Shown piece after piece: positions 6,893-31,610 of a DNA stretch of 64,000 bases (its first letter is position 1; every line of letters starts with the position of its first letter). The position numbers and the translations under genes are program-made. The notes under the pieces were generated by a model. The model did not search any database. It had not been told where the DNA came from and saw only the letters and a list, made by a program, of their open reading frames with translations. The stretch is from Thermoanaerobaculia bacterium (GTDB lineage Bacteria; Acidobacteriota; Thermoanaerobaculia; Multivoradales; JBJKRB01), in contig JBJKRB010000111.1 in the NCBI GenBank assembly GCA_046704885.1, positions 15,003 through 79,002 on the forward strand, read 5' to 3'.

Positions 6893-10323
<3,431 letters not shown>

Positions 10324-10373
10324 TAGATCAGTCTAATCGAGCTCATACCGAAGCAGGCCCACGATGGTAGGAT

Positions 10374-11846
10374 TTGCGGATCTTGCGCCAAATGTCCAAG
10401 AGAACCATGCGCCCCCTTCACTTCGTATTCTTGGCCGTCATTGTGGGTTGCGCCCTTTGGGCGACAACCGGAATCGCAAACCCTGCACAGCAGCCGTCGA
10501 GTCACTCCGCGACTACGGCCACCGGTTCTCAGACGAAGAGCGCCGACGGCTCGTCCCCGTCGCACACCTCCGACCATCCCCCGGTGGGCCCGGTCCTCGT
10601 TGGGCTCGTGATCATTCTCGCGGCGGCGAAGGTTGGCGGCGAAGTTGCCGAGCGCTTCCGCCAGCCGGCGGTCCTCGGCGAGCTCATCATTGGCGTCGCG
10701 GTCGGCAATCTTGGCTTGATCGGCATCCATTCCCTGGGCTTCCTCGTTCACAACCCGTCCATCTACGTTCTCTCGGAGATCGGCGTCGTCATTCTCCTCT
10801 TCGAGGTCGGGCTGGAATCGAACGTCTCGGAGATGCTGTCGGTAGGGCCTTCGAGCTTCCTCGTCGCTACGCTGGGCGTTATCGCTCCGTTCTTCCTGGG
10901 CTGGTGGCTCTCCGCCTGGATGCTGCCATCCGAACCGACCCTCGCCCACATCTTCATCGGCGCAACATTGTGCGCGACGAGCGTCGGGATCACGGCGCGT
11001 GTCCTTACCGATCTGGGAAAGGTGGCGACGCGCGAGGCCAAGATCATTCTCGGCGCCGCCGTGATCGACGACGTCTTGGGATTGGTGATCCTGGCCGTCG
11101 TCGCCGGGCTGATAACCGCAGCCGACACCGGCAAGCACCTTCAGAGTCTCGACATCTTGTGGATCGTCGTGAAGGCAACGCTGTTCATGGTCGGGGCGAT
11201 CGGCATCGGCTCGTGGATATCGCCTCGTCTCTTCCACCTGGCGAGCCACCTGCGGATCAAGGGAATGCTTCTCACGGTTTCGCTTCTCTTCTGCTTCGCC
11301 CTCTCCTATCTCGCCAACGTCATCGGCCTTGCCCCCATCGTGGGCGCCTTCGCCGCGGGGATGATTCTCGACGAGGTGCACTACAAGGACTTCCTGGACC
11401 GCGGCGAGCATGAGCTCGGCGATTTGATCCATCCGATCGCGATCTTTCTCGTCCCCATATTCTTCATTCACATGGGCCTGCGAGTCGATCTCGCGACCTT
11501 CGGCCACAGCGAAGTGCTCGACTTCGCGCTCCTCCTCTCCCTCGCCGCGATGATCGGCAAGGGGATCTGCGCGGCTGGCGTCCTCGAGCGCGGAATCGAT
11601 CGGCTCTCCGTCGCGGTGGGGATGATCCCGAGGGGAGAGGTGGGGCTCATCTTCGCCGGTATCGGCTCCACCATGCTCATTCAAGGCGAAAGGGTCATCG
11701 TTCCCTCGGTCTATTCGGCCGTGGTCATCATGGTCATTCTGACCACCGTCATTACCCCGCCCATCTTGAAGGTGACTCTGGCTCGCGGCGACCGCAAGAA
11801 GGCGGCGCGGGCCCAACGGCAACTCGAGAAGGGCAATCAGTCGTGA
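10374..11846 (+). CDS. Cation:proton antiporter (CPA2/Kef-type Na+/H+ exchanger family)
   Basis: 490 aa, polytopic, with an LGELIIGVAVGNLG motif and about 12 hydrophobic segments. The start is uncertain, with alternative in-frame Met codons near the N-terminus. Confidence 0.85.
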   Translation: MRILRQMSKRTMRPLHFVFLAVIVGCALWATTGIANPAQQPSSHSATTATGSQTKSADGSSPSHTSDHPPVGPVLVGLVIILAAAKVGGEVAERFRQPAVLGELIIGVAVGNLGLIGIHSLGFLVHNPSIYVLSEIGVVILLFEVGLESNVSEMLSVGPSSFLVATLGVIAPFFLGWWLSAWMLPSEPTLAHIFIGATLCATSVGITARVLTDLGKVATREAKIILGAAVIDDVLGLVILAVVAGLITAADTGKHLQSLDILWIVVKATLFMVGAIGIGSWISPRLFHLASHLRIKGMLLTVSLLFCFALSYLANVIGLAPIVGAFAAGMILDEVHYKDFLDRGEHELGDLIHPIAIFLVPIFFIHMGLRVDLATFGHSEVLDFALLLSLAAMIGKGICAAGVLERGIDRLSVAVGMIPRGEVGLIFAGIGSTMLIQGERVIVPSVYSAVVIMVILTTVITPPILKVTLARGDRKKAARAQRQLEKGNQS

Positions 11847-12222: not shown

Positions 12223-13533
<1,311 letters not shown>

Positions 13534-15785: not shown

Positions 15786-16028
15786 ATGATCATGAGCGAC
15801 GAGCCCGCCGACCCCGGGGCGAATCCAGCCCCAACCCTTTCGTTTATCCGCCATGAGCTGATGACTCCACTCAACCAAATCATCGGCTACAGCGAAATGT
15901 TGAAAGAGGATGCCCAAGACCAGGGCCTCGAGGAGATGGTCGCCGATCTTGACAAGGTGCACCAGGCGGCGCGCGAGCTAGTCAAGATGGTGCAGACCTA
16001 CTTGGCTTCTCTGCCGGCTGCCGATTGA
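15786..16028 (+). CDS. Stand-alone HisKA (DHp) domain protein with no ATPase domain
   Basis: 80 aa with an H-box ([24 protein letters not shown]) followed by a second helix (DLDKVHQAARELVKMVQTYL). A GGGAGG RBS lies upstream. The true start may be the second ATG at 15792. Confidence 0.7.
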   Translation: MIMSDEPADPGANPAPTLSFIRHELMTPLNQIIGYSEMLKEDAQDQGLEEMVADLDKVHQAARELVKMVQTYLASLPAAD

Positions 16029-16888: not shown

Positions 16889-17260
16889 TCAGCCGTTCTT
16901 GCTTAGCTGGTTTTGGATCTTCTCGAGCAAGCGCGGCAGCTCGACCGGCTTGGTGTCGTAGTCGTCGCACCCAGCCTCAAGGGTCTTCTGGCGATCGTCC
17001 GACATCGCGTGTGCGGTCAGGGCGATCACCGGAATCGAAGAGGTCGCCGGATCGTCCTTGATCTTGCGCGTCGCCTGCCATCCATCGAGCACCGGCAAGC
17101 TCATGTCCATGAGAATGAGGTCGGGCTTGTCGCTTGTCGCCTTGTCCACGCCCTCTTGTCCATCCACGGCGACAACGACTTCGAAGCCCTTGCGCTGGAG
17201 CCGGCGCGAGAGCATGTCACGGTTCATCTCGTTATCTTCTACGAGCAAGATTTTCGCCAT
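16889..17260 (-). CDS. Single-domain response regulator (CheY-like receiver)
   Basis: 123 aa with the receiver signature residues: ILLVEDNEMNR, LILMDMSLP (phospho-Asp), ALTAH and DYDTKP (Lys). Confidence 0.95.
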   Translation of the reverse strand: MAKILLVEDNEMNRDMLSRRLQRKGFEVVVAVDGQEGVDKATSDKPDLILMDMSLPVLDGWQATRKIKDDPATSSIPVIALTAHAMSDDRQKTLEAGCDDYDTKPVELPRLLEKIQNQLSKNG

Positions 17261-17278
17261 GCCTTCTTCTCCATTTCG

Positions 17279-19741
17279 TCATTGACTCGCGCGCTTGCCT
17301 GGCTTCCCGGCGCAGGCGCGAACGAGCTCCGTAATTTGTTTAACCATCTGCTCCGGACTGTAGGCGGTCTTCTGCACCACTCGCTCCACGTTGCCGTTGA
17401 GGCGAGCGCGGTCCTCCGGGGTCAGGTCCTTCGCGGTTACCACGACGACCGGTACTGCCTGTTGATGCTCGAGTTTGTGGAAACGCTCAAGGAACTCGAA
17501 TCCGTCCATCTCCGGCATCATCAAGTCTAGAAGAACGACGTCGGGATCCTTGTCCTTCAGCTTGTCGAGGGCGTCGCGGCCATTCACGGCTTCGACCGTC
17601 TCCCAACCGATCTGTTGGACCGCGCGGCACAGAAGGCCGCGGGCCGTTGGGTCATCTTCGACCACGAGCGCCAGACACCCGGCCCCGTCCTTGCTCAAGC
17701 GGGCGAGCAGGCTTGCCAGCCTCTTTCGGTCGATCGGCTTGGTCAGGTACTCGGTGGCTCCCAACGCAATTCCCATTTCCCGATCATCCATCATGGTTAC
17801 CATCACCACCGGAATCTCAGCCGTATCGGGATCCTTCTTCAGTGCCTCGAGAACCGCCCAGCCATCCATCCCGGGCATTACGACATCGAGCGTGATGGCG
17901 GCTGGATGCAGGGCCCGCGCCTTTTCCAGGCCTTCCTCTCCTCCCTCCGCCATCGCCACCCGGTACCCCTCTCGCACCAGAATCCTCTGACCGAGCTCGC
18001 GCGCCGCCGGATCGTCGTCGATGACGAGAATCAAGGGGCCCTCACCCGCGGTCACCGCCGCCTCGATGGCCTGCGCTACGGCTCCGGCGGAGTCTTCCTC
18101 GACCTCGGCGGGCAGCTCGACGGTGAACGTCGATCCTTTGCCCTCCTCGCTCGAGACCTGAATGTCCCCTCCCATCATGCGGCAGAAGCGACGCGAGATC
18201 GCCAGGCCCAACCCAGTCCCGCCAAAGCGCCTGGTGGTCGAGGCATCCGCCTGGGTGAACTCTTCGAAGACCTTGCCGACCTGCTCCGCAGTCATCCCGA
18301 TCCCGGTATCGGAAATCTCGAACACCAGCCAGGGTCTGTCGTCCCGCAGGAGCCGGTGCACCGAGAGCGACACAACGCCATGATCGGTGAACTTCGAGGC
18401 GTTGCTCAAGAGGTTGAACAGGGTTTGACGAACCTTGGTCTGGTCGGCGTGCATCTCGCCCAGACCGTCGGGCACGTCTGACTCGAGACGATTCTCGTTG
18501 CGGTCGATCAGGGGTTGAATGGTGGTGATCACCTCATCGACGAGCTCCCCAGCATCGAAGGTCTCGAGGAAGAGCGTCATCTTCCCCGCTTCGATCTTCG
18601 AGAGATCCAGAATGTCATTGATCAGGGACAGGAGGTGCTTGCCAGCGGCTCTAATCTTCTTGAGATCGCCGACGAAATCGTCGAGCCCCATATCTCCGGC
18701 ATCCTCGAGGAGCATCTCGCTGTAGCCGATGATCGCGTTCATCGGGGTGCGCAGCTCGTGGCTCATATTGGCCAGAAACGTGCTCTTCGCCCGATTTGCC
18801 TCCTCCGCGACCTGCCGAGCCGCTTGCGCCGCCGCCGTCGTCCGCGCCAGCTCCTCCTCATGACGCTCCAACGCCGCGTTGGTCGAGATCAGGCGACTGC
18901 GAGTGGCCCCCAGTCTCTCCGCCATTTCGTTGAAGGCCTTCCCCAGCTGGCCGAGCTCGTCGGCGCCATGGCTGGGCACCCGGTGGCTCAGATTGCCGGC
19001 GGAGATCTCCGCGGCGCCCTTGCGCAAGGCGCTCAGCCCCTGGTTGAGCTGGCGCGAGAAGAGGTACGCCAGGGCCAGGGCCAGGAGCGCGGAGAGAACG
19101 AAGATCAGCGTGCTCCAGCGCGCTGTGAACCGCGCCACCTCGTAGGATCGAGAGGTGGCGGCCGTGATCCTCTCCTGCTCTTCCTTTTCCAGGTGGGATA
19201 GCGCTTCGAGGACCCTCTGGCTCAGCACCGCCACGCGCTGCCCAGCGGTGGTGGGGGGGTGCTTGGCCGGCGGCGCCACTTCCGGGCCACTCGTCGCTCC
19301 AGCCGTGGCGGCGTTCTCGGCCGTGGTCTCCGTACCCGGCGCAAGAGGAGGTTCCGCTGCCGCTGCCGACCAAGCCTTTGCGAGGTCGTCATAGAGGTGC
19401 GCGAAGCTCTCGAGTCGCGGCCGGTCTTGCTTGGCCGCGTGACGTATGAGTTGAGTAATCTCCTCCCGCGTCGCCGCGACATGCGCGGCGAAGGCGGTCC
19501 TCTGGTCGGCGCTGACGCTCCCGGCGTTGGTCTTGAGCAGCGCGAGTACCGCGGCCTGTTTGATCCTCTTGTCGATCTGTTGCGCGATCCCGTTCAATCG
19601 CATTCGCTGATCGACCGCATGGGAGAGGTCGGAGATCGTCTGGTCGCGACGGGCCGAGCCCCAAAGAAAAAGGGCGAGATTTGCCGCGCAGAGAAACAGA
19701 ATGCCGGCCAGGGCAAGAGCCAGGCGCCGGCGGACCGTCAC
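17279..19741 (-). CDS. Hybrid sensor histidine kinase (TM sensor-HAMP-HisKA-HATPase_c-REC-REC)
   Basis: 820 aa with a GTG start and a GTGA overlap with the upstream gene stop. It has a HAMP domain ([16 protein letters not shown]), an H-box ([22 protein letters not shown]), N and G boxes ([24 protein letters not shown]) and two receiver domains. Confidence 0.95.
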
Positions 19742-21441
19742 GGCGCGGCCTCCGGCGGCTGCGCAGGCACGAGCTTCGCGATACGCGCTTCGACCTGCGG
19801 GGGCAAGGAAGTGAAGTGGATGATGGCGTTACCTTCCTCGGCCGCGCGACGGCCGAGAACCTTGGCATAGAAGTCGGCTCCCTCCGCGCCATCCGATTCC
19901 CCGTCACCGCTGAACCGCAAGCGCAGATTCGTCATCGCCGGCGGTAGGTTCGGGCCGGCAATCTCCGCCTCGCGGTGGGATAGGCGGGTGATCTCGCCCT
20001 TGTGAGCCTGCCCTGACGAATCCTTGCCACTGACGGTGAAGTACTCGACGGCCAGCCTCGGGGAGAGATCGCTCATCGAATCCTCGACTCGCCTCAGCTC
20101 GAGCCCCGCTTCTGGAATTCCGCCCACTTCATAGAGAGTGATCGGCGCCCCAACGCCCTTGGGCTGGACCTCGATCGTTCCGTCGACGCGGACCTTGTCA
20201 CCGACGGACTCGATGGTTTGCGCGGAGGCGAGAATCTGCCCGCCGACCGTATAGGACTCGATCCGCGAGGTGAGGTTGACGTTGCTCCCCACGACGCCGT
20301 ACTTGGTCCGCTTCTCCGACCCGATGTTGCCGACCACAACGTCGCCCGTGTTGATCCCGACGCCCATCTGCACCTCGGGCAATTCCGCCTCGCGATTCAT
20401 CCGATTGACGTCGGCGATGGCGAGCTCCATCTTCAGGGCGCACTCGAGCGCGGCGCGCGCATGATCGGGCCGGGGAACGGGAGCGCCGAAGAGGACCAGG
20501 ATGCCGTCGCCCTGGAACTCGTCGACCGTGCCCCCTGCCTCCCCGATGACGTCAGCCATCGTGCCGAGGTAGTTGTTAAGCATGGCGACAACCTGCTCAG
20601 GCCGCAGGCGTTCGGAGAGCGAGGTGAAGCCTCGGAGGTCGGCCATCAAGATGGAGATATTCCGCTTCTCTCCTCCGAGCTTGAGACCGTCTGGATTCTC
20701 CAACAGGCTGGCCACCACTTGATCGGTGATGTAGCGCCCGAAAATCTGCCGAATCATGCTATTGCGAAGCTCGAGCTGGCGCGCCAGCAAGGCGCTTTGG
20801 CCTATCGCCCGCTTGAGCGCGATCTGCGCTTCGCTGCGCGCTCGCACGATGGCGAAGTCGATCGGCTTCGTCACATAGTCGTTCGCCCCCTTCTCCAAGG
20901 CCTGAACGACATCCTCGCTCTCGCTCTTCGCGGTGACCATGATGACCGGGAGCTCGCCTCGGCTGCGCGTCTTGCGCACCGTCTCCAACACCTCGAGACC
21001 ACTCATCCCGGGCATCATGACGTCCAGCAGAACCAGGTCGATCGGCGGCTCATCGGCGTCGATCTTCTTGAGAGCCGAGGGTCCGTCGGCGGCCATCTCG
21101 ACTTCGTAACCTTGCCGCTTGAGCCGGCGGGAGAGTACGTCCCGATTCATCTCGTTGTCGTCGACAACCAAGATGGTGGCCGCTTTCTCTTCCTCTTCTT
21201 CGGCTCCCTCTTCCTCGCTCAGGGCATCCGGTGATTCGAGCAGGCGGTCGATGAGATCGAGGATGCGCCGAGCGGCGCTCTCAATCTTCCCTAGATCGGT
21301 TGCATAGTCCGTCTGTCCGTCGCTGGTGAGCTCCTCTTGGAGAAGCTCGCTGTAGCCGATGATCTGGCTGATAAGCGTGCGCAGGTCGTGGCGCAGGCGA
21401 ACAACCGTGCCGAGACTCACGCCCGCCGCTCCCTTCGGCAC
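19738..21441 (-). CDS. HisKA-like(DHp)-REC-class III nucleotidyl cyclase fusion with PilZ-like C-terminal region
   Basis: 567 aa. It has an N-terminal H-box-like helix ([22 protein letters not shown]) with no ATPase, and a receiver ([11 protein letters not shown]...LLDVMMP...YVTKP). The cyclase core motifs are [23 protein letters not shown] and [12 protein letters not shown]. The last ~110 aa form an uncertain beta-rich domain. Confidence 0.9.
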
Positions 21442-21559
21442 CGGCCGCTTTCCCGACGACAGATCTTCGCGCCCAGCTTATCCATCATGATGGGACCACT
21501 CTCGTGGCAAGCTATCATAGCCCGTTAGCGCTGGTCGGGGCTCGAAGACACCTACCACG

Positions 21560-23434
21560 ATGGCAAATCGAGACGATGGCGGACACGACGATACTAGGGG
21601 GCGCGACTGGCGCCAGCGAGCGGTCTCAGCGAGCCAAGCCGTGGCCCTCGTTCAGCCCGGCGACCGGGTCTTCCTAGGATCCGCCTGCGCCACGCCGCGC
21701 GTGCTCATACGGGCTCTCGAAGAGAGCGACGAACCGCTCGCCGACGTCGAGCTCGTTCACTTCCTCACCGACGGCGCCGTGCCAGTATACGATGCGGGGC
21801 CGATTACTCGTTTCCGCCATCGAACGTTCTTCGTGGGGAGCGACATGCGCCCGCTGGTCGCCTCCGGCCAGGCGGACTACGTGCCCGTCTCTGCGCGCAG
21901 CGCCACCCAGCTGATTCGCCAAGGGAAGCAACCAGTCGATGTCGCCTTTCTCCAGGTGACACCTCCCGATGAGAATGGCCGCGTCAGCCTGGGGATCTCG
22001 GTAGACATGGCGTTGGCCGCAGTCGCGGCGGCGCGAAACATCGTCGCCGAGATCAATCCCAACATGCCGCGAACGAGCGGGGAATCGAGCTTCGACCTCG
22101 CGGCGATCGACCGCTTCGTCGTCGTCGACGAGCCGCTCATCGAATACCTCCACCCCGCCGCCGAGGAAGTTGCCGAGAAAATTGCGCGTTACGTCGCTCG
22201 TCTCATCGACGACGGGGCGACGCTGGCAATCGGCCTGGGCAGGATTCCGAACGAGATGCTCAAGTATTTGACGAATCGCCACGACTTGGGCATTCACTCG
22301 GACGTCATCACCGAACCCTTGGTCGATCTGATCGAGGCGAAGGTGGTCAGTGGGAAGCGCAAGGCCCTGCATCCGGGCAAGGTAGTGGCGAGCTACGCGA
22401 TGGGAACCCGGCGTCTCTATGATCTGATGAACGACAATCCCCTCTTCGAGCTGCGGCCAATCGACGAAGTATCCGATCCTGAGGTGATTGCCAGCAACAA
22501 CGGGATGGTGGCCGTAACCCAGGCCTTTGCGATCGACCTCACGGGTCAGGTCTGCGCCGACCAGTTCGAGGGCGAGTTCTACAGTGGCGTTTCGACGCAG
22601 AACGAGTTCCTGCGCGGAGCCTCCGCTTCTCCGGGTGGCAAGGCCATCGTCTGTCTCACCTCGACAACCGACGACGGCAAGGTTTCGCGGATCCGGCCCT
22701 TGCTCAAGGAGGGTGAAGGGGTGGCGGTCGCGCGCTCCGACGTCCACTTCGTGGTGACTGAGTATGGAAGCGCATACTTGTTCGGCCGCTCGATTCGGGA
22801 CCGCGCCCTCGCTCTGATCGAGATCTCCCACCCGGAATTTCGCCAAGAGTTGCTCGAGGATGCACGGCGACTGGGATACGTGAGCGCCGAGCAAACGCTC
22901 AAGAGCCGCCAAGCCTACCCGCAAGAGGAAGAGCGCGACGTGGGCCTCTCCGACGGCCAGGTCCTTCGCCTCCGGCCAACCCGGGCAAGCGACGTGCGTG
23001 CGTTTCAGCAGCTCTTCCATGACCTGCGCCCGGAAGACATCTACACGCGCTTCTTCACGAATTTGCGGTCCCTGTCGGAGAACAAGGCCCAGCACCTATG
23101 CAACGTCGACTACGAGAACGAGATGGCTTACGCCGCGGTAACCGGGGACATGGACAAGGAGGAGATGCTCGGAAGCTGCTGCTATTTCGCCGACCCCTCG
23201 ACCCGACTTGCCGACGTAGCCTTCATGATTCACCCCGACTATCAGGGCAAGGGTTTGGGAACCGTGCTCGTCCAGCAGTTGATGGAGTACGCCCGCCGGC
23301 AGGGCCTGCGGGGCTTCACCGCGGACGTCCTCAGCGAGAACAAGCCCATGCTCAGGGTCTTCGAGAAGAGCGGCGCAAAAATTGAGACCAAGCTGGAGTC
23401 TGGAGTCTTTGAGGTAACCCTCCTCTTCCAATAG
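21560..23434 (+). CDS. Acetyl-CoA hydrolase/transferase family domain fused to a C-terminal GNAT acetyltransferase
   Basis: 624 aa. The N-terminal ~440 aa resemble 4-hydroxybutyrate/acetyl-CoA CoA-transferases (GSACATPR, EINPNMPRT, VVTEYG). The C-terminal ~170 aa show a GNAT signature (IHPDYQGKGLGTVLVQQLMEYARRQG). Confidence 0.85.
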   Translation: MANRDDGGHDDTRGRDWRQRAVSASQAVALVQPGDRVFLGSACATPRVLIRALEESDEPLADVELVHFLTDGAVPVYDAGPITRFRHRTFFVGSDMRPLVASGQADYVPVSARSATQLIRQGKQPVDVAFLQVTPPDENGRVSLGISVDMALAAVAAARNIVAEINPNMPRTSGESSFDLAAIDRFVVVDEPLIEYLHPAAEEVAEKIARYVARLIDDGATLAIGLGRIPNEMLKYLTNRHDLGIHSDVITEPLVDLIEAKVVSGKRKALHPGKVVASYAMGTRRLYDLMNDNPLFELRPIDEVSDPEVIASNNGMVAVTQAFAIDLTGQVCADQFEGEFYSGVSTQNEFLRGASASPGGKAIVCLTSTTDDGKVSRIRPLLKEGEGVAVARSDVHFVVTEYGSAYLFGRSIRDRALALIEISHPEFRQELLEDARRLGYVSAEQTLKSRQAYPQEEERDVGLSDGQVLRLRPTRASDVRAFQQLFHDLRPEDIYTRFFTNLRSLSENKAQHLCNVDYENEMAYAAVTGDMDKEEMLGSCCYFADPSTRLADVAFMIHPDYQGKGLGTVLVQQLMEYARRQGLRGFTADVLSENKPMLRVFEKSGAKIETKLESGVFEVTLLFQ

Positions 23435-23446
23435 CATCCCGCTGTC

Positions 23447-25711
23447 TTGACAACCACCGGACAAGAAGGGCACGCAAGGGCACAGGCCGCTCGGACTCTG
23501 CTACGCCGTCTCTTCGGCGAGCGGGTCGCCGACCTCGACAGCTCCACCGAAGAGCAGATCATCGCTGCGACCTCCGTGATTGATCTGGCGGCGGGCGAGA
23601 CCTTGGTGCGCAAAGGAGAGGACGCCGATCGGCTCTTCCTGGTGCAACAAGGCAAGCTCGAGGCAGTCATCGAGCGTCGCGACGGCGGTGATCAGTTTCT
23701 CGCGGCCATAGGCCCCGGAGACCTGATCGGAGAGGTCGCTCTGCTGGCTGGCGGAACTCGCTCCGCCACCGTTCGCGCCGCAACCCCCTGCCGTCTGACC
23801 GCCCTCGCTCGCAGCGCGTTCGCGGATCTCGTCGCCAGACATCCCGAGATCAGCGCTCCCTTTGTCTCGGCCATAACCGAACGCTTGCGGCATTCTCAGG
23901 TTACGACCTACCTGACTCGGCTCTTTGGCCCGATGAGCGCCGAAACAGTGGCCGACATGGAACGCGAGGTTCGGTGGCGCACTCTTACCAGCGGCGAGGT
24001 TCTGTGTCGCGAGGGAGACCCCGGAGACTGCGCCTACATCGTCATCAGCGGCAGGCTCCGAGTCACGGTCGCGCGGCCAGACGGCAGCGAACGCGTCGTC
24101 AACGAGGCCGGACGCGGCGAGATCATCGGGGAGATGGCGCTGCTCACTGGAGAGCCGCGCTCCGCGAGCCTCTACGCCATCCGAGATACCGACTTGGCCG
24201 AGGTCTCCCGCTCGGGTTTCGATCGGCTGATGAGGAGGTACCCGGAAGCGCTGGTGCAGATCGCGCGCCTCATCGTCAGTCGCTTGCAGCAACAGACCAA
24301 AGCCACTGGCGGCGAGCCCAACACTTTGATCACGCTCGCGGTCGCCCGCGCCGGCTCGCGAGTCTCGACGGGCCGTTTGGCGGAAGAGTTGGCCGCGGCC
24401 CTATCTGCCCACGGTGAAACGACGATCCTCACTTCGAGCTCCGTCGACCACGCCCTCGACCGTCAAGGGATCGCTCAAATTGGAGAGAGCGACCCCGGCA
24501 ACATTCGCCTGGTCCAATGGCTGAGCTCGATCGAGAACCGCTTCCGCTACATCATCTACCAGGCCGACGACGAGCTCAGCCCCTGGACGCAGCGCTGTTT
24601 GCGCCAGGCGGACCGCATCCTCTGGGCGGCGGAAAGCGGTGATGATCCGGCGCTGTCATCCCTTGAGGGCGGCGCTTCCGAAGCGTGGCAGGACCGACCC
24701 ATGCCCCCGTCGAGCCTGGTCTTGCTCCACCCGGACGATGGTAGCGAGCCGCGGGGAACAGCGCGTTGGCTCTCGTCCCGGAACGTCGAAAGCCACTTTC
24801 ACCTACGCCTTGGCTCAAAGCGGGACATCGAACGGCTCGCACGCACTCTCACCGGAAGAGCGGTCTCTCTGGTCCTAGGCGGCGGGGGCGCGCGCGCAGC
24901 CGCCGACCTTGGAGTCCTGAGAGCCCTTGAGGAAGCACAGGTGTCGGTCGACCTCGTGGGCGGCACCAGCATGGGGGCGATCATGGCGGCCTTTGTCGCG
25001 ATGCGCCTAAGCTCGCAAGAAGCGACGAGGACCTGTGAGCGCCGCTTCGCTTCGCTCTTCGACTACACCCTCCCCATCGTCGCGCTGCTCGCCGGGCGCA
25101 GGATCTACCGCCAACTGTCCGCCACCTTCGAGGATCGTTCCATCGAGGACCTCTGGCTTCCCTACTTCTGCGTATCCACGAGCCTGACCCGCGCCGAGCA
25201 GCACATTCACCGGAGCGGCGCTCTAGTCGAGGCGATTCGCGCCAGCATCTCGCTGCCTGGAGTAATGCCTCCGTACCACTGGCAAGACGAGCTCTTGATC
25301 GATGGGGGCCTCCTCAACAACCTCCCGATCGACGTGATGCGCTCCCACAATCATGGCGGCCAGGTGGTCGCCGTCGACGTGACACCCGAGGTCGACATCA
25401 TGGCGTCGGCGGATCTCCCGCACGCGGTGTCGGGCTGGAGCCTTCTGTGGCGCCGCCTCAATCCCTTCGCGCAAGCCGCGAGCGTTCCTCACATTCTGAA
25501 CTTGCTCACCCGGGCGACAGTGGTCCCGAGCATCCATTCGAGAGGCCAGGCACTCGAGAACTCGATGGCCGACCTCTATCTGCGAATCCCCGTCGAAGAC
25601 TGGAAGCTCCTCGATTTCTCGGCGCTTGGGGAGATCGCGCAACGCGGATTTGATGCCTCGTGGAAGGAGATTCGGGCGTGGCGGCAAGACCTCGCGAAGC
25701 AAGGGCTTTGA
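23447..25711 (+). CDS. Patatin-like phospholipase with two N-terminal cyclic-nucleotide-binding domains (NTE-like)
   Basis: 754 aa with two phosphate-binding cassettes (GEVALLAGGTRSATVRA and GEMALLTGEPRSASLYA). The patatin motifs are GGGGARAAA, GTSMGA (GxSxG) and IDGGLLNNLP (catalytic Asp). Confidence 0.9.
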   Translation: MTTTGQEGHARAQAARTLLRRLFGERVADLDSSTEEQIIAATSVIDLAAGETLVRKGEDADRLFLVQQGKLEAVIERRDGGDQFLAAIGPGDLIGEVALLAGGTRSATVRAATPCRLTALARSAFADLVARHPEISAPFVSAITERLRHSQVTTYLTRLFGPMSAETVADMEREVRWRTLTSGEVLCREGDPGDCAYIVISGRLRVTVARPDGSERVVNEAGRGEIIGEMALLTGEPRSASLYAIRDTDLAEVSRSGFDRLMRRYPEALVQIARLIVSRLQQQTKATGGEPNTLITLAVARAGSRVSTGRLAEELAAALSAHGETTILTSSSVDHALDRQGIAQIGESDPGNIRLVQWLSSIENRFRYIIYQADDELSPWTQRCLRQADRILWAAESGDDPALSSLEGGASEAWQDRPMPPSSLVLLHPDDGSEPRGTARWLSSRNVESHFHLRLGSKRDIERLARTLTGRAVSLVLGGGGARAAADLGVLRALEEAQVSVDLVGGTSMGAIMAAFVAMRLSSQEATRTCERRFASLFDYTLPIVALLAGRRIYRQLSATFEDRSIEDLWLPYFCVSTSLTRAEQHIHRSGALVEAIRASISLPGVMPPYHWQDELLIDGGLLNNLPIDVMRSHNHGGQVVAVDVTPEVDIMASADLPHAVSGWSLLWRRLNPFAQAASVPHILNLLTRATVVPSIHSRGQALENSMADLYLRIPVEDWKLLDFSALGEIAQRGFDASWKEIRAWRQDLAKQGL

Positions 25712-25770
25712 GGCGATCACTGGACCGGGAGTCTTCCTTTTGGCAGCAACTCGTGCTATCGTCCGCCACG

Positions 25771-27015
25771 ATGTCGTTTTCGGGTCGAGGGGGAGGGACA
25801 GTATCCATCGGGCGAGTCATCGCCCTCACGGTTCTTGTCGCCGCTCTTCTGGCGTTTCCCCTCTTCCCGCAGACCGATAGCGCGGCAAACGCGAGCTCCA
25901 CCAGCAAGACCCAAACCGAACAGAGCAAGAAGGACAAGAGCGCGAAGAGCAGCAAGCCCGCCTCGAGCGAAGAGCCGAAGCTGACGGCGGCGGACGAAGC
26001 GGCTCTCGCCGCCATGTTCCCGTCCTATCCCACGCTTCACGCTCTGTTCTTCGCTTCGGGGACGGTCGTCTCTGAGCACCACACCGGCACCAACGGGCGA
26101 AGCACGACGACCAGCGGCGGCGCCGACCTGGTCCTGACCTCACAGTTTTCGGACAACTGGTCGGCCCTCGGCCAGTTCTCGTTGCGCTCGACCGAGGGCG
26201 AGAGCACGCTCACCCGAATCGAGCAGCTACAACTCCGCTTCGCGCGCTCCGATGAGTTCCAGCTCCGCCTCGGCAAGTTCCACACTCCGGTCGGATACTG
26301 GAACGAGACGTTCCACGACATCGCCTGGCTTCGCACCTCGATCTTCCGTCCGGAGATGTTCCGCTATGAGCAGGACGGCGGCATCATGCCCGTCCACACG
26401 ATCGGCGTTCAGGCAGCCGGCAAGATCGGCTTCCGCCCCATGGAGTTCGGTTACAGCTTCACGTTCGGCAAGGGGCGCGGTCCGAAGATCACCGATGAGA
26501 CCAAGTTCAGCAACCTGAACAGCCCGCATGCCCTTACCGCCCAGTTCACCTTCTCGCCCAACCGCTTCCGTGGCTTCAAGCTGGGAGTCAACGGTTACGC
26601 GGACACGATTCCCGCGGATCCCACGACCCCGGGAAGGAACGGTACGATCGGCGAGCGGATCTACGGCGGTTTCGTCGCCTGGCACCTGCTCAATCTCGAG
26701 ATTCTGGCCGAATACGACGCCATAGAGCACCACGACTCCGTAACCAACCTGACCTTTAGGTCGGACGGGTATTACTGGCAGGTCGCTTCACAGTTCTACA
26801 ACTGGCGCATCTACGAGCGAACCGACGTCATCAACTTCGACCCCTTCGATCCTTACTTCCTGACCATCGACCATCGCGACTTGATCAAGTTCACGGTCGG
26901 CGTCCGCTGGGACGCCACACGTTGGCTGGGGATTAAGGGCGAATACAGCTATACGGACCGTAACCGCCAGCCGAATTCGAATGCCATCAACTTCCAAGCG
27001 GCGGTGTTCTTCTGA
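25771..27015 (+). CDS. Outer-membrane beta-barrel porin-like protein
   Basis: This uses an internal Met of track ORF 25660..27015, which avoids overlap with the upstream gene. It has a signal peptide (VIALTVLVAALLAFPLFPQ), a K/S-rich linker, alternating beta-strand pattern and a terminal aromatic (AAVFF). Confidence 0.7.
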   Translation: MSFSGRGGGTVSIGRVIALTVLVAALLAFPLFPQTDSAANASSTSKTQTEQSKKDKSAKSSKPASSEEPKLTAADEAALAAMFPSYPTLHALFFASGTVVSEHHTGTNGRSTTTSGGADLVLTSQFSDNWSALGQFSLRSTEGESTLTRIEQLQLRFARSDEFQLRLGKFHTPVGYWNETFHDIAWLRTSIFRPEMFRYEQDGGIMPVHTIGVQAAGKIGFRPMEFGYSFTFGKGRGPKITDETKFSNLNSPHALTAQFTFSPNRFRGFKLGVNGYADTIPADPTTPGRNGTIGERIYGGFVAWHLLNLEILAEYDAIEHHDSVTNLTFRSDGYYWQVASQFYNWRIYERTDVINFDPFDPYFLTIDHRDLIKFTVGVRWDATRWLGIKGEYSYTDRNRQPNSNAINFQAAVFF

Positions 27016-27509
27016 TGACGATGATGCGTAAGGGCGTCCTTCTCGTCATCCTTTCAGGCCTGCTCGTGACGTTGGCCTCCCCCTTGTTGGCGGCCGAGCG
27101 CGAGGTGGCGGTGATCGTCAATCCGAAGAATCCGGTCAGTGAGGTCTCGCTCAATGACCTGCGAAAGATCTTCCGACTGGACCAGACCTTCTGGCCCAAT
27201 GGCAAGAGAATCCGCCTCTTGATGCTCGAGCATGGGACCTCCGCAAAGGAGCTGATCTTGAAGCGGGTCTACAACATGACCGACAGCCAGCTGCGCCAGT
27301 TCTGGGTCCGCAAGATGACCGGCCTCGAAAGCGCGGACTTCCCTCGCGCTTGGAGCTCGGGGGCGGCGGTCAAGCTCGTGGTCCACCGTTATCCCACTGC
27401 GATCGGTTACATCGACGCCGATCAAGTGGACTCGAGCGTCAAGGTCCTAGCGATCGACGGCAAGAAGCCGGGGCAGTCGAATTACCCTCTGGCCTTACGC
27501 ACTCCCTAA
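27015..27509 (+). CDS. Small periplasmic PstS/PBP-like substrate-binding-domain protein
   Basis: 164 aa with a TGATG overlap onto the porin stop and a signal peptide. Motifs SLNDLRKIFRLDQTFWPNG and TAIGYIDADQV resemble the PBP_like_2 fold, but the protein is only about half the usual length. Confidence 0.65.
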   Translation: MTMMRKGVLLVILSGLLVTLASPLLAAEREVAVIVNPKNPVSEVSLNDLRKIFRLDQTFWPNGKRIRLLMLEHGTSAKELILKRVYNMTDSQLRQFWVRKMTGLESADFPRAWSSGAAVKLVVHRYPTAIGYIDADQVDSSVKVLAIDGKKPGQSNYPLALRTP

Positions 27510-27597
27510 CAGCCCCCTCCCCCTGGCCGGTCCCTCGATTGGCTGGATCCTCTCTCGTCTGCGGTAGGATGACTGACCGAAGCTACTGGGTCACCGG

Positions 27598-30162
27598 ATG
27601 AGGATCCGCACCAAGTTCTTGATTATCTTCTGGGCGCTCTCTCTCGCGCCCCTCTTTGCCTTGGGCCTGCTCGGCTATCTCAAGGGTGAAGAGCTCATCC
27701 GGCAACACCTCGGTTCTCTCTTCCAGCAGAAGGCGGAGGTCGCGACGCTCGACATCGATCGCGAGCTCTACACCCTGTTCCAGACGACTCAGGGTTGGGG
27801 AAGCCTGCAGGTTTTACAGCAGGGGGTGGCGAGTAATGACGTCGACCTCGGGATCCACCTCTTCTTGCACGCTCGTGGCCAAGAGTTTCCCGACCTCGCG
27901 AGCGCCGTGGTCACGGACGATCACGGCAAGTTCATCGCCGGCTTCGATCGCCACTCCAAAGCCCCGCCACTCGATCAAGCAGAGATCGAGAAGACTCTCA
28001 AGAGCGATACGGCGATCGCGCAAGACGCCCATTGGGACCCCGAGCTCCAGATGGCGATCGTCACCTTCTATGCGCCGATTCCCGATGTGTTGTTTCCCAA
28101 GAAGGTGGCCGGCGTCCTGCGTTGCGAGTGGTCCCTTGGCGACATCTTCGGCACCGTCCAGAGACGCTTCAAGGAGATGTCCAAGAGCGGCCGCTCCGAC
28201 TTGATGATCATCAACAAGAGCGGCTTGTTGCTCTCGGCCCCTTCCGATCTCGAGTACAAGCCGTTCCAGGCGAACCTCGTTTCGTTGGGCTTCACCGCGG
28301 CAAAGGAGGCTACCGAGGCTCCGCGCGGAGGATCCGGCTACACGGCAGAGCATCTCGTTGGTGGCAAGGATTACCTGGCTGGTTTCAGCAAGGAGATCGG
28401 TTACCGCCACTTCGCCGGTTTCGGTTGGGCGGCAGTGGTCATCCAGGACACCGCGACCGCCTTCGCACCGATCTATCAGCTGCAGCGGGCCGCCAGCCTC
28501 GTGGCTCTATTGGTCCTCCTCGTCGTCGGCTTCTTCTCCTTGGTGATCGCCCGCCGTATGAGCCTCCCGGTGGTAAGGGTCTCGAAGGCCGCGGAAAGGG
28601 TGGCGCAGGGCGACTTCGAAGTGGAGATCGCGGCGGGAAGCCACGACGAGATCGGCACCTTGATCGCGGCCTTCAACAAGATGGTACGCGACCTGCGCGG
28701 GCAACGTTCCCAGCTCGTCGACAAGGACTATGTGGACTCGATCATCGCCAACATGCTCGATGCCCTGATCGTCCTCACTCCGGAAGGCCAAATCAAGACC
28801 GTTAACAGCGCCACTCTGAAGATGCTGGATTACAGCGAGAACGAGCTGGTCGATCAACCCTTCCAGATCCTCGTCAAGGAACCCTGGGAGGAGGTCTCAA
28901 AGCTCGTGGTACGGCCGCCCGACGACGATGCCTCCGGTTCCACCGCCGAGGCATTTCTTGCTGACGTCCTCGGTCGCCAGGACGAGGACGACGGCGGGGA
29001 GACAAAGGCCGGCCCTTCGGAGGCGTTTCTCACCTTCATTCGGCACGACGGCAGTGAGCTTCCGGTCAGTTTTTCGGGGAGCACGCTCGTCGGTCCTGGA
29101 GGTCTTGTCGATGGGATCATCTGTATCGCCCGCGACATCACGCTGCGTAAGCAGACCGAGGAGGCCCTGCGGCAGGCGAAAGAAGCGGCGGAGGAAGCCA
29201 ACAAATCGAAGAGCCAGTTCCTGGCGAATATGAGCCATGAGCTGCGCACGCCGCTCAACGCCATCATCGGCTACAGCGAGATGCTGCGCGAGGACGCCGA
29301 GGACGCGGGCGAGGAGACGGCCGTCTCCGACCTCGACAAGGTGCTGGCGGCCGCCCGCCACCTCCTGGCGCTGATCAACGACATCCTCGACCTTTCGAAG
29401 ATCGAAGCCGGGCGTTTGGAGATCTACTGCGAGACCTTCGACCTGCAGCAGCTGGTTCGCGACGTCGTCTCCACCGTCCAGCCTCTGATCGAGAAGAACG
29501 CCAACGTCCTCGAGGTCAAGGTTGATCCCTCGATCACAGAGGTTTACGCCGACCTCACGCGCGTTCGGCAGGTCCTCTTCAACCTGCTGAGCAACGCTTC
29601 CAAGTTCACCAAGGAAGGCACGATCAATCTGGACGTCTGGCCCGAAAAGGTGGATGGGCTGGACTGGTTCTACATGCGCGTCAAGGACAGCGGCATCGGG
29701 ATGACGGAGGAGCAACTAGCCAAGCTGTTTCAAGAGTTCTCGCAAGCAGACGCATCGACCACCCGCAAGTATGGCGGAACCGGTCTGGGTCTCGCCATCA
29801 GCCGCAAGCTCTGCCACATGATGGGCGGCGATATCAAAGTGGCCAGCGAGTACGGCAAGGGCTCATCCTTTACCGTCCAGGTGCCCGCTCACGTGACGAC
29901 GGGCAAAGAAGAAACGAGCATCGAGGCCAGCAAGCCCCCGAGCCAAGGCGCGGGTTCGGTCGAGGCGACGCAAACCGTCGAAGATGAAGCCGCGAAGGTG
30001 AAAGCGGAAAGTGGTTCGAGCTCGTCGGCGGAGTCCGCGACCGACGACGACGGCAAAGAAGCGAAGGAAGAGAGCCCGGCCGAGAAAGACGCGACGCCGC
30101 AGGAAGCGGAGGAGCCGTCAGAAGCCAGCTCGGCCGCGGGCGGTAACCCGAGCTCGAGCTGA
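27598..30162 (+). CDS. Sensor histidine kinase (Cache-like periplasmic domain-HAMP-PAS-HisKA-HATPase_c, acidic disordered tail)
   Basis: 854 aa with two TMs flanking a ~270 aa periplasmic domain. It has a HAMP domain ([15 protein letters not shown]), an H-box ([25 protein letters not shown]) and [15 protein letters not shown] and GGTGLGLAI boxes. The last ~90 aa are rich in E/S/A. Confidence 0.95.
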
Positions 30163-30257: not shown

Positions 30258-31079
30258 TCATCGACTTCGCGGAAGAGCCTGGAGCGCAACTCGCCGACCC
30301 TGAGCGGCGCGCGAGTGACTCTGAACCCATCTGATGTAGGCCACGAGGGCATCGATATCCCCGTCCGAGAGCCTGCCCTTGAAGGCCGGCATCTTGATCA
30401 CCTCGTGCGAGAGCACGGCGTGAGCGAGCGGGTCGCGCTTGAATCGATTGCTCGCCCCATTGAGGATCCACTGGCGGAGCTCCTCATTGTTGTGCACCAA
30501 ATCGGCGAAATCCGAGCCGCTCCAGGGAGGAATATACCCCTTGAGTGACCCCGGATCCATGACTAGCCCTCGTCCCTCCGCCCCGTGGCAGCCAAAGCAA
30601 CCGGCACGCAAAGCGACATCCCGCCCCTTTTGCTCTTCCGAGCCGCTCGGGCCCCCGTACTGCTGCACCGTGAAAACGTAGGCCAGGAGATCGGCCAACT
30701 CCGCGCGCGAAATCGAGCCGCGGAAGGCGGGCATCGACAGGAGGGCCGAGGACGACGCCGTGCGGCCGGGCGGGTGGCCATCCAGGATCCATGCCGCGAC
30801 GTCGCCGGGAGAATTGTTGTACATCAACCAGGTACCTCCCGACCACGTTGGGACCGAACCGTCCTGGCTCCCCAGATTCGCGATCGGATGCACTCCACCG
30901 GGACCGTGACAGGCGAAGCAACCCAGCTGCTCCGCCACCCTGCGGCCGCGCTGCACCGGGGTGTTCAGCGCTTCTCTCGATGAGCTCCGTCGATAGTGAT
31001 GAAAGGTGAGAAGGGCCGTCTCGCCGGCGACCACTACCAGCAAGGCCGCAAGAAATCCGTAGAGCAGCTTGCGTGACAT
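30258..31079 (-). CDS. Membrane-anchored di-haem c-type cytochrome
   Basis: 273 aa with an N-terminal TM and two CxxCH motifs (CFACHG, CFGCHG), each followed by a distal Met region (LLSMPAF, VIKMPAF). Confidence 0.85.
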   Translation of the reverse strand: MSRKLLYGFLAALLVVVAGETALLTFHHYRRSSSREALNTPVQRGRRVAEQLGCFACHGPGGVHPIANLGSQDGSVPTWSGGTWLMYNNSPGDVAAWILDGHPPGRTASSSALLSMPAFRGSISRAELADLLAYVFTVQQYGGPSGSEEQKGRDVALRAGCFGCHGAEGRGLVMDPGSLKGYIPPWSGSDFADLVHNNEELRQWILNGASNRFKRDPLAHAVLSHEVIKMPAFKGRLSDGDIDALVAYIRWVQSHSRAAQGRRVALQALPRSR

Positions 31080-31142
31080 CAGCGGTTGATGTTGGAGAAA
31101 CAGAGAGCTGGACCGGATCGAACCGGTCCAGCCCTCGGCGTT

Positions 31143-31610
31143 CTACATCATCGAGGAACCGCCCGCGGCGGGCTTGACCGAGCTGATGAACAGAGCTTCC
31201 GTTCCTCCACGCTTGACCCAATGCCCCATGACGGTCACCGTCTTGGCAATGTAAGGCATGAGCATCGCGTTGGCGGAATGTCCTGGCTGACTCGATTCCA
31301 CCCAGACTACGCGATGGGTTCCCTTCTGGAGAATGGCGAGCGGAATCCCCGCCTTGGCGCACTTCTCGGCGCAAGCCTTGTGCCCGGCACCGGTGGCCGC
31401 GGAGCCATGCTCCAAATAGCAGCGAGAGCCGATCACCTCACCGGTAACCGACGCCTCCGCCGCCATCTCACCCTGTTTCATCTGGTGATGCATCATGCCG
31501 GGGTGCGCTGCGGTGCCATTCTGGCCGGTTGCGGCGAAGCTGGGCAGCGCGACCATAGCCAGCACCGCGGCTCCACCGAGAACGAGTGACATTCTCGACT
31601 TCAAGTTCAT
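31143..31610 (-). CDS. Exported His/Met-rich protein of unknown function
   Basis: 155 aa with a signal peptide (AVLAMVALPSFA), an HPGMMHHQMKQGEM stretch and three Cys (CYLEH...HKACAEKC). It is co-directional with the cytochrome. Confidence 0.6.
   Translation of the reverse strand: MNLKSRMSLVLGGAAVLAMVALPSFAATGQNGTAAHPGMMHHQMKQGEMAAEASVTGEVIGSRCYLEHGSAATGAGHKACAEKCAKAGIPLAILQKGTHRVVWVESSQPGHSANAMLMPYIAKTVTVMGHWVKRGGTEALFISSVKPAAGGSSMM

Follow-up and report, generated by a model that had tools for sequence, protein, structure and literature searches.

The window analyzed here is a 64,000-nucleotide stretch of a Thermoanaerobaculia bacterium contig (JBJKRB010000111.1), and between its positions 16889 and 30162 lie two divergent strings of genes that combine sensor kinases, a class III nucleotide cyclase and a candidate receptor for its product. 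The minus string encodes a CheY-like protein, a hybrid kinase and a HisKA-REC-Guanylate_cyc protein. The plus string encodes a fusion of AcetylCoA_hydro domains to a GNAT acyltransferase, a patatin-like lipase with two cyclic nucleoside monophosphate (cNMP)-binding domains (2x cNMP-NTE_Ploop-Patatin), an outer membrane protein (OMP)-like barrel, a PBP_like_2 protein and a HAMP-PAS-HisKA-HATPase kinase. Five of these genes form a core that is recurrent, resistant to rearrangement and optional. We consider it reasonably probable that the cassette is a functional signaling unit, and we hold each of its individual steps with less confidence.

A recurrent five-gene core

Two distant metagenomic relatives (L094 and L095), chosen on a hint that the cyclase and the GNAT fusion were co-located, each encode a divergent hybrid kinase followed by a DHp-REC-cyclase, a single receiver (REC), a CoA-transferase-like/GNAT fusion and a cNMP-NTE-patatin. 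Identity to the window proteins is 49 to 52% for the cyclase over its full length, 63 to 65% for the GNAT fusion, 55 to 61% for residues 319 to 814 of the hybrid kinase (transmitter and two REC domains) and 72 to 75% between the window CheY and the REC protein encoded between cyclase and GNAT fusion. The patatins, at 47.5% identity, are as close to that of the window as any patatin in the database. Gene order and orientation differ between the window and both relatives, and the proximity of the cassette genes has therefore survived rearrangement. In L094, the cassette is followed by an acetyl-CoA synthetase gene. The initial annotation had read the locus as a self-contained cyclic-nucleotide module and had named co-conservation in related genomes as the test on which that reading might fail; the five-gene core came through this test in L094 and L095. 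Self-containment is not shown, since the patatin is deleted in a sister lineage and, in a further relative (L013), some 220 kb of the same contig separate a patatin homolog from the pair of cyclase and GNAT fusion.

A metagenome scan with the GNAT-fusion alignment returned 80 loci with 471 kb of flanking DNA, in which patatin neighbors were counted only where tblastn confirmed them. Genes for cNMP-patatins directly adjoin the fusion or lie no more than a few kb away at five loci (L021, L032, L039, L045, and L056), in mixed orientations, against about 0.2 expected (Poisson P of ~5e-6 at 0.5 genes per Mb). They are the commonest specific neighbors of the fusion in this sample, with two-component genes next, and class III cyclases, mostly of the Guanylate_cyc-AAA_16-TPR type, occur near it at 6 of the 80 loci. 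In L013, the gene of a stand-alone Cya2-like cyclase shares 4 bp with the start of the GNAT fusion. The tightest pairs are those of cyclase with CheY and of GNAT fusion with patatin, and the GNAT fusion is the most constant partner of cyclase and patatin alike. A contig scan with the patatin as query yielded four distant, uninformative loci only. Each component comes from a large and ordinary family, and it is the combination alone that is unusual; the 64 kb of the window have one cyclase and one cNMP-binding protein, both in the cluster, and no receiver domain outside it.

A probable receiver-controlled guanylyl cyclase

The cyclase comprises a DHp-only HisKA segment with His18, a receiver with Asp140, a cyclase transducer element with an FGRY motif, a class III catalytic domain bearing Glu308 and Gly382, and a tail at residues ~446 to 567. 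Its catalytic domain matches PF00211 (E 3e-26) and is 59% identical to that of Synechocystis Cya2 (2w01; E 1e-69), with which it has the FGRY element in common, and Glu308 (GGTVDEF) and Gly382 (KYGVVG) align with the Cya2 motifs DEF and YGVVG. The catalytic residues Asp268, Asp312, Asn389, and Arg393 are present and are conserved in all 120 top homologs of a family with >6,800 homolog matches; among the same 120, 118 keep the Glu, 119 the Gly and 103 the H-box His18, and the receiver Asp is invariant. No transmembrane segment is predicted, and the CHASE2 architecture of Cya2 is absent, the N terminus consisting of HisKA and Response_reg domains. Cya2 is a guanylyl cyclase that the exchange E488K turns into an adenylyl cyclase (PMC5995499). 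Because of the 59% identity to Cya2 and the same Glu/Gly specificity pair, cGMP is the likelier product, and the gene probably encodes a guanylyl cyclase controlled by phosphorylation. The cyclase gene of the initial annotation thus stands, and the messenger that it had left unspecified is more probably cGMP.

The 120-amino-acid (aa) tail (19738-20103, minus strand) was modeled by AlphaFold2 with a pLDDT of 81, and its top 38 Foldseek matches were all PilZ domains. Weak Pfam PilZ matches occur in 11 of 19 family tails, and most of the 120 top homologs have a tail (median length, 122 aa). Since the RxxxR motif is absent from this predicted PilZ fold, binding of cyclic di-GMP by the tail is doubtful.

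An NTE-like patatin as candidate receptor

The patatin, one of a family with >1,200 homolog matches, is recognized by Pfam through two PF00027 stretches (E 2e-49), PF24179 (E 5e-28) and PF01734 (E 5e-31). Its lipase domain has GGGGAR at 478, Ser508 in GTSMG and Asp619 in DGG, and both phosphate-binding cassettes (PBCs) are intact, with Glu96/Arg105 in the first and Glu229/Arg238 in the second. Both PBCs and all three lipase motifs are likewise intact in the linked L094 and L095 orthologs. A hydropathy scan found no transmembrane segment in the protein, which we read as a putative soluble NTE-like (lyso)phospholipase and a candidate receptor for the messenger. The cNMP domains have mixed PDB matches to PKA, PKG, and CRP that do not decide between cGMP and cAMP, and their best NCBIfam matches are CRP and mycobacterial Pat. 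Our literature search found nothing on bacterial cNMP-patatins that covers the cassette.

Other patatin homologs were seen in different settings. Those of L006 and L007 (P0018 and P0021), in a ribosomal or housekeeping context, have a degenerate first PBC (GVG...HSA), in what is a small sample. In L005, a gene with cNMP_binding and FeeM/Acetyltransf_5 domains (OlsB-like N-acyltransferase; 12244-13422) adjoins patatin homolog P0007; here, too, an NTE-like patatin is paired with a nucleotide-linked acyltransferase. In L039, the GNAT-fusion homolog and the cNMP-patatin are separated by a SulP-STAS transporter (9592-11805) that ends in a cNMP-binding domain, and L008 encodes a 3,073-aa cyclase-AAA_16 protein 6 kb from its patatin homolog.

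A fusion of a CoA-transferase-like domain and a Pat-type GNAT

Residues 17 to 439 of the fusion match 4-hydroxybutyrate CoA-transferases (E 7e-112 to 9vag). In RipA, Glu249 is the catalytic glutamate that forms the CoA thioester (PMC3180442); in PDB alignments, this column holds Asp248 in the fusion, and GGQ is replaced by STQ. Asp248 is invariant in 26 members of the fusion family. Eleven solved homologs were found; among the five whose individual residues were displayed, HTE occurs in four and HTD, with Asp, in 4n8l. The annotation as a CoA-transferase/GNAT protein is therefore borne out in sequence and fold for its first half and needs correction at the active site, where the catalytic Glu is absent and Asp248 stands instead. 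The GNAT half is of the Pat type (NF058543, E 2e-22; PDB 9it0, 4nxy, and 4ava, E 8e-21 to 3e-11) and has an acetyl-CoA loop, QGKGLG, at 562. Pat proteins are described with regulatory domains that are NDP-forming acyl-CoA-synthetase-like (types I and II) or small and cAMP-, NADP-, or amino-acid-binding (type III) (PMC11254643). The regulatory half of the fusion is AcetylCoA_hydro/4-hydroxybutyrate-CoA-transferase-like and so does not fit types I to III; the architecture falls outside the type I to V scheme quoted in that work. The protein is probably an acyl-CoA-sensing protein acyltransferase.

Pfam and NCBIfam recognized no cNMP-binding domain in the fusion. Its family exceeds 4,400 homologs, tblastn of plasmids with the fusion returned stand-alone CoA-transferases only, and we found nothing in the literature on CoA-transferase-GNAT fusions that covers the cassette. 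Homologs of the fusion in L015 (1-7582), L022 (5056-8427), and L051 (1-1467) are flanked by Guanylate_cyc-AAA_16-TPR cyclases with the adenylyl-type Lys/Thr pair.

Sensor kinases, receivers and an accessory pair

The hybrid kinase has transmembrane segments at residues 5 to 30 and 205 to 232 around a 175-aa periplasmic domain, followed by HAMP, DHp, catalytic and ATP-binding, REC, and REC domains. The second kinase has segments at 5 to 28 and 292 to 326 around a 265-aa periplasmic domain with a weak dCache match and carries no receiver of its own. Because their transmitters are 60% identical, the two kinases likely share receivers, and both probably phosphorylate the same ones. No HPt domain was found in the hybrid kinase or elsewhere in the cassette; the phosphorelay domains present are those of the hybrid kinase with its two REC domains, the DHp-only HisKA with His18, and the REC-cyclase. 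We propose that the free CheY serves as a Spo0F-like phosphoryl shuttle or as a phosphate sink. In L094 and L095, the sensor part of the hybrid kinase is a MASE2-GAF module, unlike the periplasmic domain in the window, and in L095, a gene for a membrane-PAS-HisKA kinase lies downstream of the patatin. Outside the core, an 80-aa open reading frame (ORF) of the window (15786-16028, plus strand) encodes little more than a DHp-only HisKA hairpin (Pfam E 2e-9), 48% identical to the hybrid-kinase DHp and 35% to the cyclase N terminus, and could be a free phosphotransfer or decoy module.

The initial annotation saw in the OMP and the periplasmic binding protein (PBP)-like protein a dedicated envelope entry route for the module. 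This view needs correction, as the two genes lie outside the conserved core, being absent from L094 and L095, and give the impression of accessories to the second kinase. A porin next to a PstS-like mini-PBP with a signal peptide (~140 to 165 aa) was seen in the window (25768-27509), in Pseudoalteromonas xiamenensis (L098, 3858-5351), where it adjoins a methyl-accepting chemotaxis protein (MCP), and in Burkholderia sp. PAMC 26561 (L099, 3911-5372), where it adjoins a 1,092-aa EAL protein. Because the pair is found with different outputs, MCP and EAL, it appears to be a separate sensory accessory, here probably that of the second kinase encoded downstream. The OMP itself has a BBP2 match beneath the cutoff (E 1.4e-3) and weak collinear similarity (E 0.005) to the gene that precedes the Burkholderia mini-PBP, and it is 87% identical in L011. 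Met37 is its most likely start, since a signal peptide follows and homology with the relatives begins there. A 451-aa gene upstream of the L007 patatin was considered as an OMP counterpart and rejected, being alike in length and unrelated.

Organization of the locus

All eight genes that the initial annotation had named in the locus were recovered with their positions and domains (ORF listing, Pfam, and NCBIfam; Table 1), and so was the divergent gap, which is real with the longest ORFs; database gene calls, with the cyclase starting at 21420 and the GNAT fusion at 21641, would widen it to as much as ~220 bp. The region is ~80% identical at the DNA level in L010 and L012, and a promoter and terminator scan of the locus found nothing beyond shuffle expectation. 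Minus-strand genes are spaced by a 4-bp overlap and an 18-bp gap, and plus-strand genes by gaps of 12 bp and ~56 bp, a 1-bp overlap and an 88-bp gap. By coordinates alone, this spacing agrees with the two divergent operons proposed earlier. No mobile-element or defense-island context was seen around the cassette, and matching DNA came from mangrove metagenomes. Directly downstream of the second kinase (30258-31610, minus strand) lie genes for a 273-aa di-heme cytochrome c and for a 155-aa protein that Pfam does not match; the relatives showed nothing that ties these two to the cassette.

Table 1. Features of the cassette, in window coordinates
Feature	Position	Strand	Basis
Single-domain CheY-like REC	16889..17260	-	Pfam Response_reg, E 9e-28
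Hybrid sensor kinase, HAMP-HisKA-HATPase-REC-REC	17279..19741	-	Pfam
HisKA (DHp only)-REC-Guanylate_cyc cyclase with predicted PilZ-fold tail	19738..21441	-	Pfam
Divergent intergenic region	21442..21559	none	118 bp between gene strings; ORF coordinates and sequence
AcetylCoA_hydro N and C domains fused to GNAT	21560..23434	+	Pfam, NCBIfam
2x cNMP_binding-NTE_Ploop-Patatin	23447..25711	+	Pfam
OMP-like beta-barrel protein	ORF 25660..27015; likely start Met37 at 25768	+	Weak BBP2 match
PstS-like mini-PBP, 164 aa, signal peptide	27015..27509	+	PBP_like_2, E 1e-5; TIGR02136, E 1e-6
Second sensor kinase, HAMP-PAS-HisKA-HATPase	27598..30162	+	Pfam; weak dCache match

Proposed mechanism and alternatives

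We speculate that two envelope sensors, the hybrid kinase and the Cache/PAS kinase (the latter probably served by the OMP and mini-PBP), feed one phosphorelay. A phosphoryl group may pass from the kinase receivers or from free CheY to His18 of the DHp-only segment, acting as a Spo0B/ChpT-like phosphotransferase, and from there to Asp140 of the cyclase's own receiver, a route suggested by the architecture and by the constant pairing of cyclase and CheY. The phosphorylated receiver could then activate the cyclase via the FGRY transducer element, with cGMP as the most likely product, and the nucleotide would bind the two cNMP domains of the patatin and alter its (lyso)phospholipase activity and membrane lipid turnover. 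In the weakest step, the Pat-type GNAT might acylate a protein target in step with acyl-CoA status, with acetyl-CoA synthetase as a candidate. We infer the steps of phosphotransfer, binding and activity from the domain content, conservation and residues observed.

The closest relatives of the window strain have dispensed with the putative receptor of this scheme. Three contigs with ~80% DNA identity to the window (L010, L011, and L012) have ~36 bp in place of window positions 23434 to 25564, a 2.1-kb difference through which patatin codons 1 to 706 are missing and the last 48 are left. Because these 48 codons align with the C termini of all patatin homologs, the event was a deletion in the relatives and not an insertion in the window, and because two sublineages with 86% identity between their GNAT fusions have the same boundaries, it is old. 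In all three contigs, the divergent cyclase gene is still present, as are those for the GNAT fusion and the OMP.

This loss is the first of several observations that weigh against the proposed scheme. The remnant codons evolve faster than the flanking genes (67 to 73% versus 82 to 87% amino acid identity to the window). In the same mangrove samples, the patatin-less form is 3 to 20 times deeper than the patatin-bearing window strain, the deletion joint (23391>25566) having a depth of 39, 98, and 8 in runs X1 to X3 and the window-strain contigs a depth of 4 to 12. The patatin is thus dispensable, and since the patatin-less relatives keep the rest of the cassette, at greater depth, that rest functions, or at least persists, without the lipase. 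Five of five patatin homologs at 44 to 47% identity had no neighbor in common with the window, and two cyclase homologs taken without bias (L096 and L097) are flanked by a single REC partner only, with the other cassette partners absent. L094 and L095, having been chosen on hinted co-location, give no measure of how frequent the cassette is. The excess of cyclases near GNAT-fusion homologs loses its significance if the genomes concerned are rich in cyclases, and most of the cyclases there are of a different, Lys/Thr STAND type. Finally, the Arg-Ser/Thr of the PBCs fits cGMP binders and the cAMP-binding CRP alike, and being common to both, it does not settle the specificity of the receptor.

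One alternative is that the unit consists of phosphorelay, cyclase and CoA-transferase-like/GNAT fusion, with the patatin as an optional passenger and the nucleotide receptor either encoded elsewhere or replaced by some other response of the fusion or its target. We regard this as credible, though unlikely. It would explain why the sister lineage retains cyclase, GNAT fusion and OMP under constraint while the patatin remnant decays, why the patatin-less form is the more abundant, and why L013 translationally couples a Cya2-like cyclase to the GNAT fusion with the patatin far away. Against it, the fusion has no recognizable cNMP-binding domain with which to respond, cNMP-patatins are its commonest specific neighbors across divergent loci, often with no cyclase nearby, and the intact PBCs in the window, L094, and L095 suggest a working receptor.

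A second alternative leaves the cassette as proposed and changes its messenger to cAMP or a mixture, after the example of most class III cyclases of bacteria and of the mycobacterial cAMP-Pat paradigm. The PBC sequence Arg-Ser-Ala also occurs in the cAMP-binding CRP, and the NCBIfam matches of the cNMP domains to CRP and mycobacterial Pat point the same way, as does the adenylyl-type Lys/Thr pair of the other cyclases that adjoin GNAT-fusion homologs. According to PMC4215837, the substrate does not always follow from the specificity residues alone. We nevertheless find cAMP distinctly unlikely in view of the 59% identity to Cya2 with the same Glu/Gly pair, the role of that Glu in setting GTP versus ATP in Cya2 (PMC5995499), and the conservation of Glu/Gly in 118 to 119 of 120 family members.

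Chance could also have brought together signaling genes that are abundant in Acidobacteriota, an explanation that the very large component families (>1,200, >4,400, and >6,800 matches) and the unlinked state of most homologs examined would allow. It is already disfavored, and we think it very improbable, because five orthologs recur together after rearrangement, cNMP-patatins are significantly enriched adjoining the GNAT fusion, and the spacing of the genes indicates translational coupling. Hardly any credence goes to an anti-phage system of the Pycsar/CBASS kind, in which an alarm nucleotide from the cyclase would gate a patatin that destroys the membrane: PADLOC matched the cyclase domain to PycC and the patatin to PycTIR/phospholipase effectors, and patatin presence varies between close relatives, as is common for defense genes, but the PADLOC matches are generic (E 1e-23, compared with 1e-69 for Cya2), the cyclase combines two-component control with a purine-type Glu/Gly pair, the cassette includes kinases and an acyltransferase and keeps 47 to 75% amino acid identity over deep divergence, patatin homologs lie among ribosomal and housekeeping genes, and neither mobile elements nor a defense island were seen around the cassette. 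Nor does the locus have the compact cyclase-effector operon of Pycsar/CBASS, its receiver-controlled cyclase being closest to Cya2.

Returning to the signaling unit with cGMP as its probable messenger, a stronger version of it is a bacterial cGMP pathway not described before, in which a phosphorelay-gated, Cya2-type cyclase would directly control an NTE-family lysophospholipase via tandem cNMP domains, together with a very widespread and so far unclassified group of Pat-type acyltransferases whose sensor domain is a degenerate CoA-transferase. We advance this version only tentatively, as possible. If true, its outcome would be nucleotide-controlled remodeling of membrane lipids and acyl-CoA, and the >6,800 DHp-REC-cyclases with Glu/Gly would make cGMP signaling common in Acidobacteriota and their neighbors.

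Comparison with known systems

The cyclase resembles Cya2 of Synechocystis PCC 6803 (2W01) in its class III domain, Glu/Gly pair, FGRY element and C-terminal extension. Cya2 is a membrane protein regulated by CHASE2, whereas the window cyclase has a DHp-only segment and a receiver as input and a tail with a predicted PilZ fold. We know of no cNMP effector linked to Cya2, and to our knowledge few bacterial cGMP circuits have been described. In Rhodospirillum centenum (Gcy/CgrA) and Xanthomonas campestris (XC_0250/XC_0249), a class III guanylyl cyclase is encoded near a cNMP-domain effector, the two effectors being a CRP-type transcription factor and a cNMP-GGDEF enzyme. The window departs from these circuits in that its candidate effector is a lipase, an acyltransferase is a constant partner and the input would be a phosphorelay. 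The cassette names a candidate cGMP effector and draws attention to the very numerous receiver-controlled cyclases that have guanylyl-type residues. Its hybrid kinase, free receiver, ATPase-less DHp-like His module and terminal receiver recall the Spo0F-Spo0B-Spo0A and ChpT relays, joined to receiver-regulated class III cyclases; unlike in those relays, the putative His-transfer module and the terminal receiver-cyclase form a single polypeptide. Literature searches found no work on receiver-controlled guanylyl cyclases that covers the cassette and no description of the cassette as a whole.

The pairing of a cyclic nucleotide with a Pat-type GNAT is shared with mycobacterial cAMP-Pat (Rv0998/MSMEG_5458), whose substrate is acetyl-CoA synthetase, the enzyme encoded next to the cassette in L094; the window GNAT matches NF058543 and PDB 4AVA and 4OLL. 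In the mycobacterial protein, the cNMP domain is fused to the GNAT, whereas here the cNMP domains sit on a separate patatin and the fusion partner of the GNAT is a CoA-transferase-like domain in which Asp has replaced the catalytic Glu. For the fusion family of >4,400 members, recurrent siting beside cNMP-patatins, cyclases and two-component genes offers a first functional lead.

Finally, the patatin has the domain order of NTE/PNPLA6, PNPLA7, and Drosophila SWS, namely, cNMP domains, the NTE P-loop-like domain and a patatin esterase with its GxSxG/DGG dyad. Eukaryotic NTE has three cNMP domains (PNPLA6; PMC9025805) and ~1,300 anchored residues, compared with two domains and ~750 residues lacking an N-terminal membrane anchor in the window protein, and a dedicated cyclase encoded beside an NTE-type lipase is a feature of the bacterial cassette only. 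In animals, cyclic-nucleotide control of NTE/PNPLA6 lipases is only "suggested," and disease mutations fall in the cNMP sites (PMC9025805). A soluble, 750-aa bacterial homolog encoded beside its own cyclase would be a simple model for ligand identity and gating, and the patatin-less sister population provides a natural control for comparison with the patatin-bearing form. A sensor that acts through a cyclase on a cNMP effector is a classical logic; the conserved combination of a receiver-controlled, Cya2-type cyclase with an NTE-type lipase and a Pat GNAT fused to a degenerate CoA-transferase is new.

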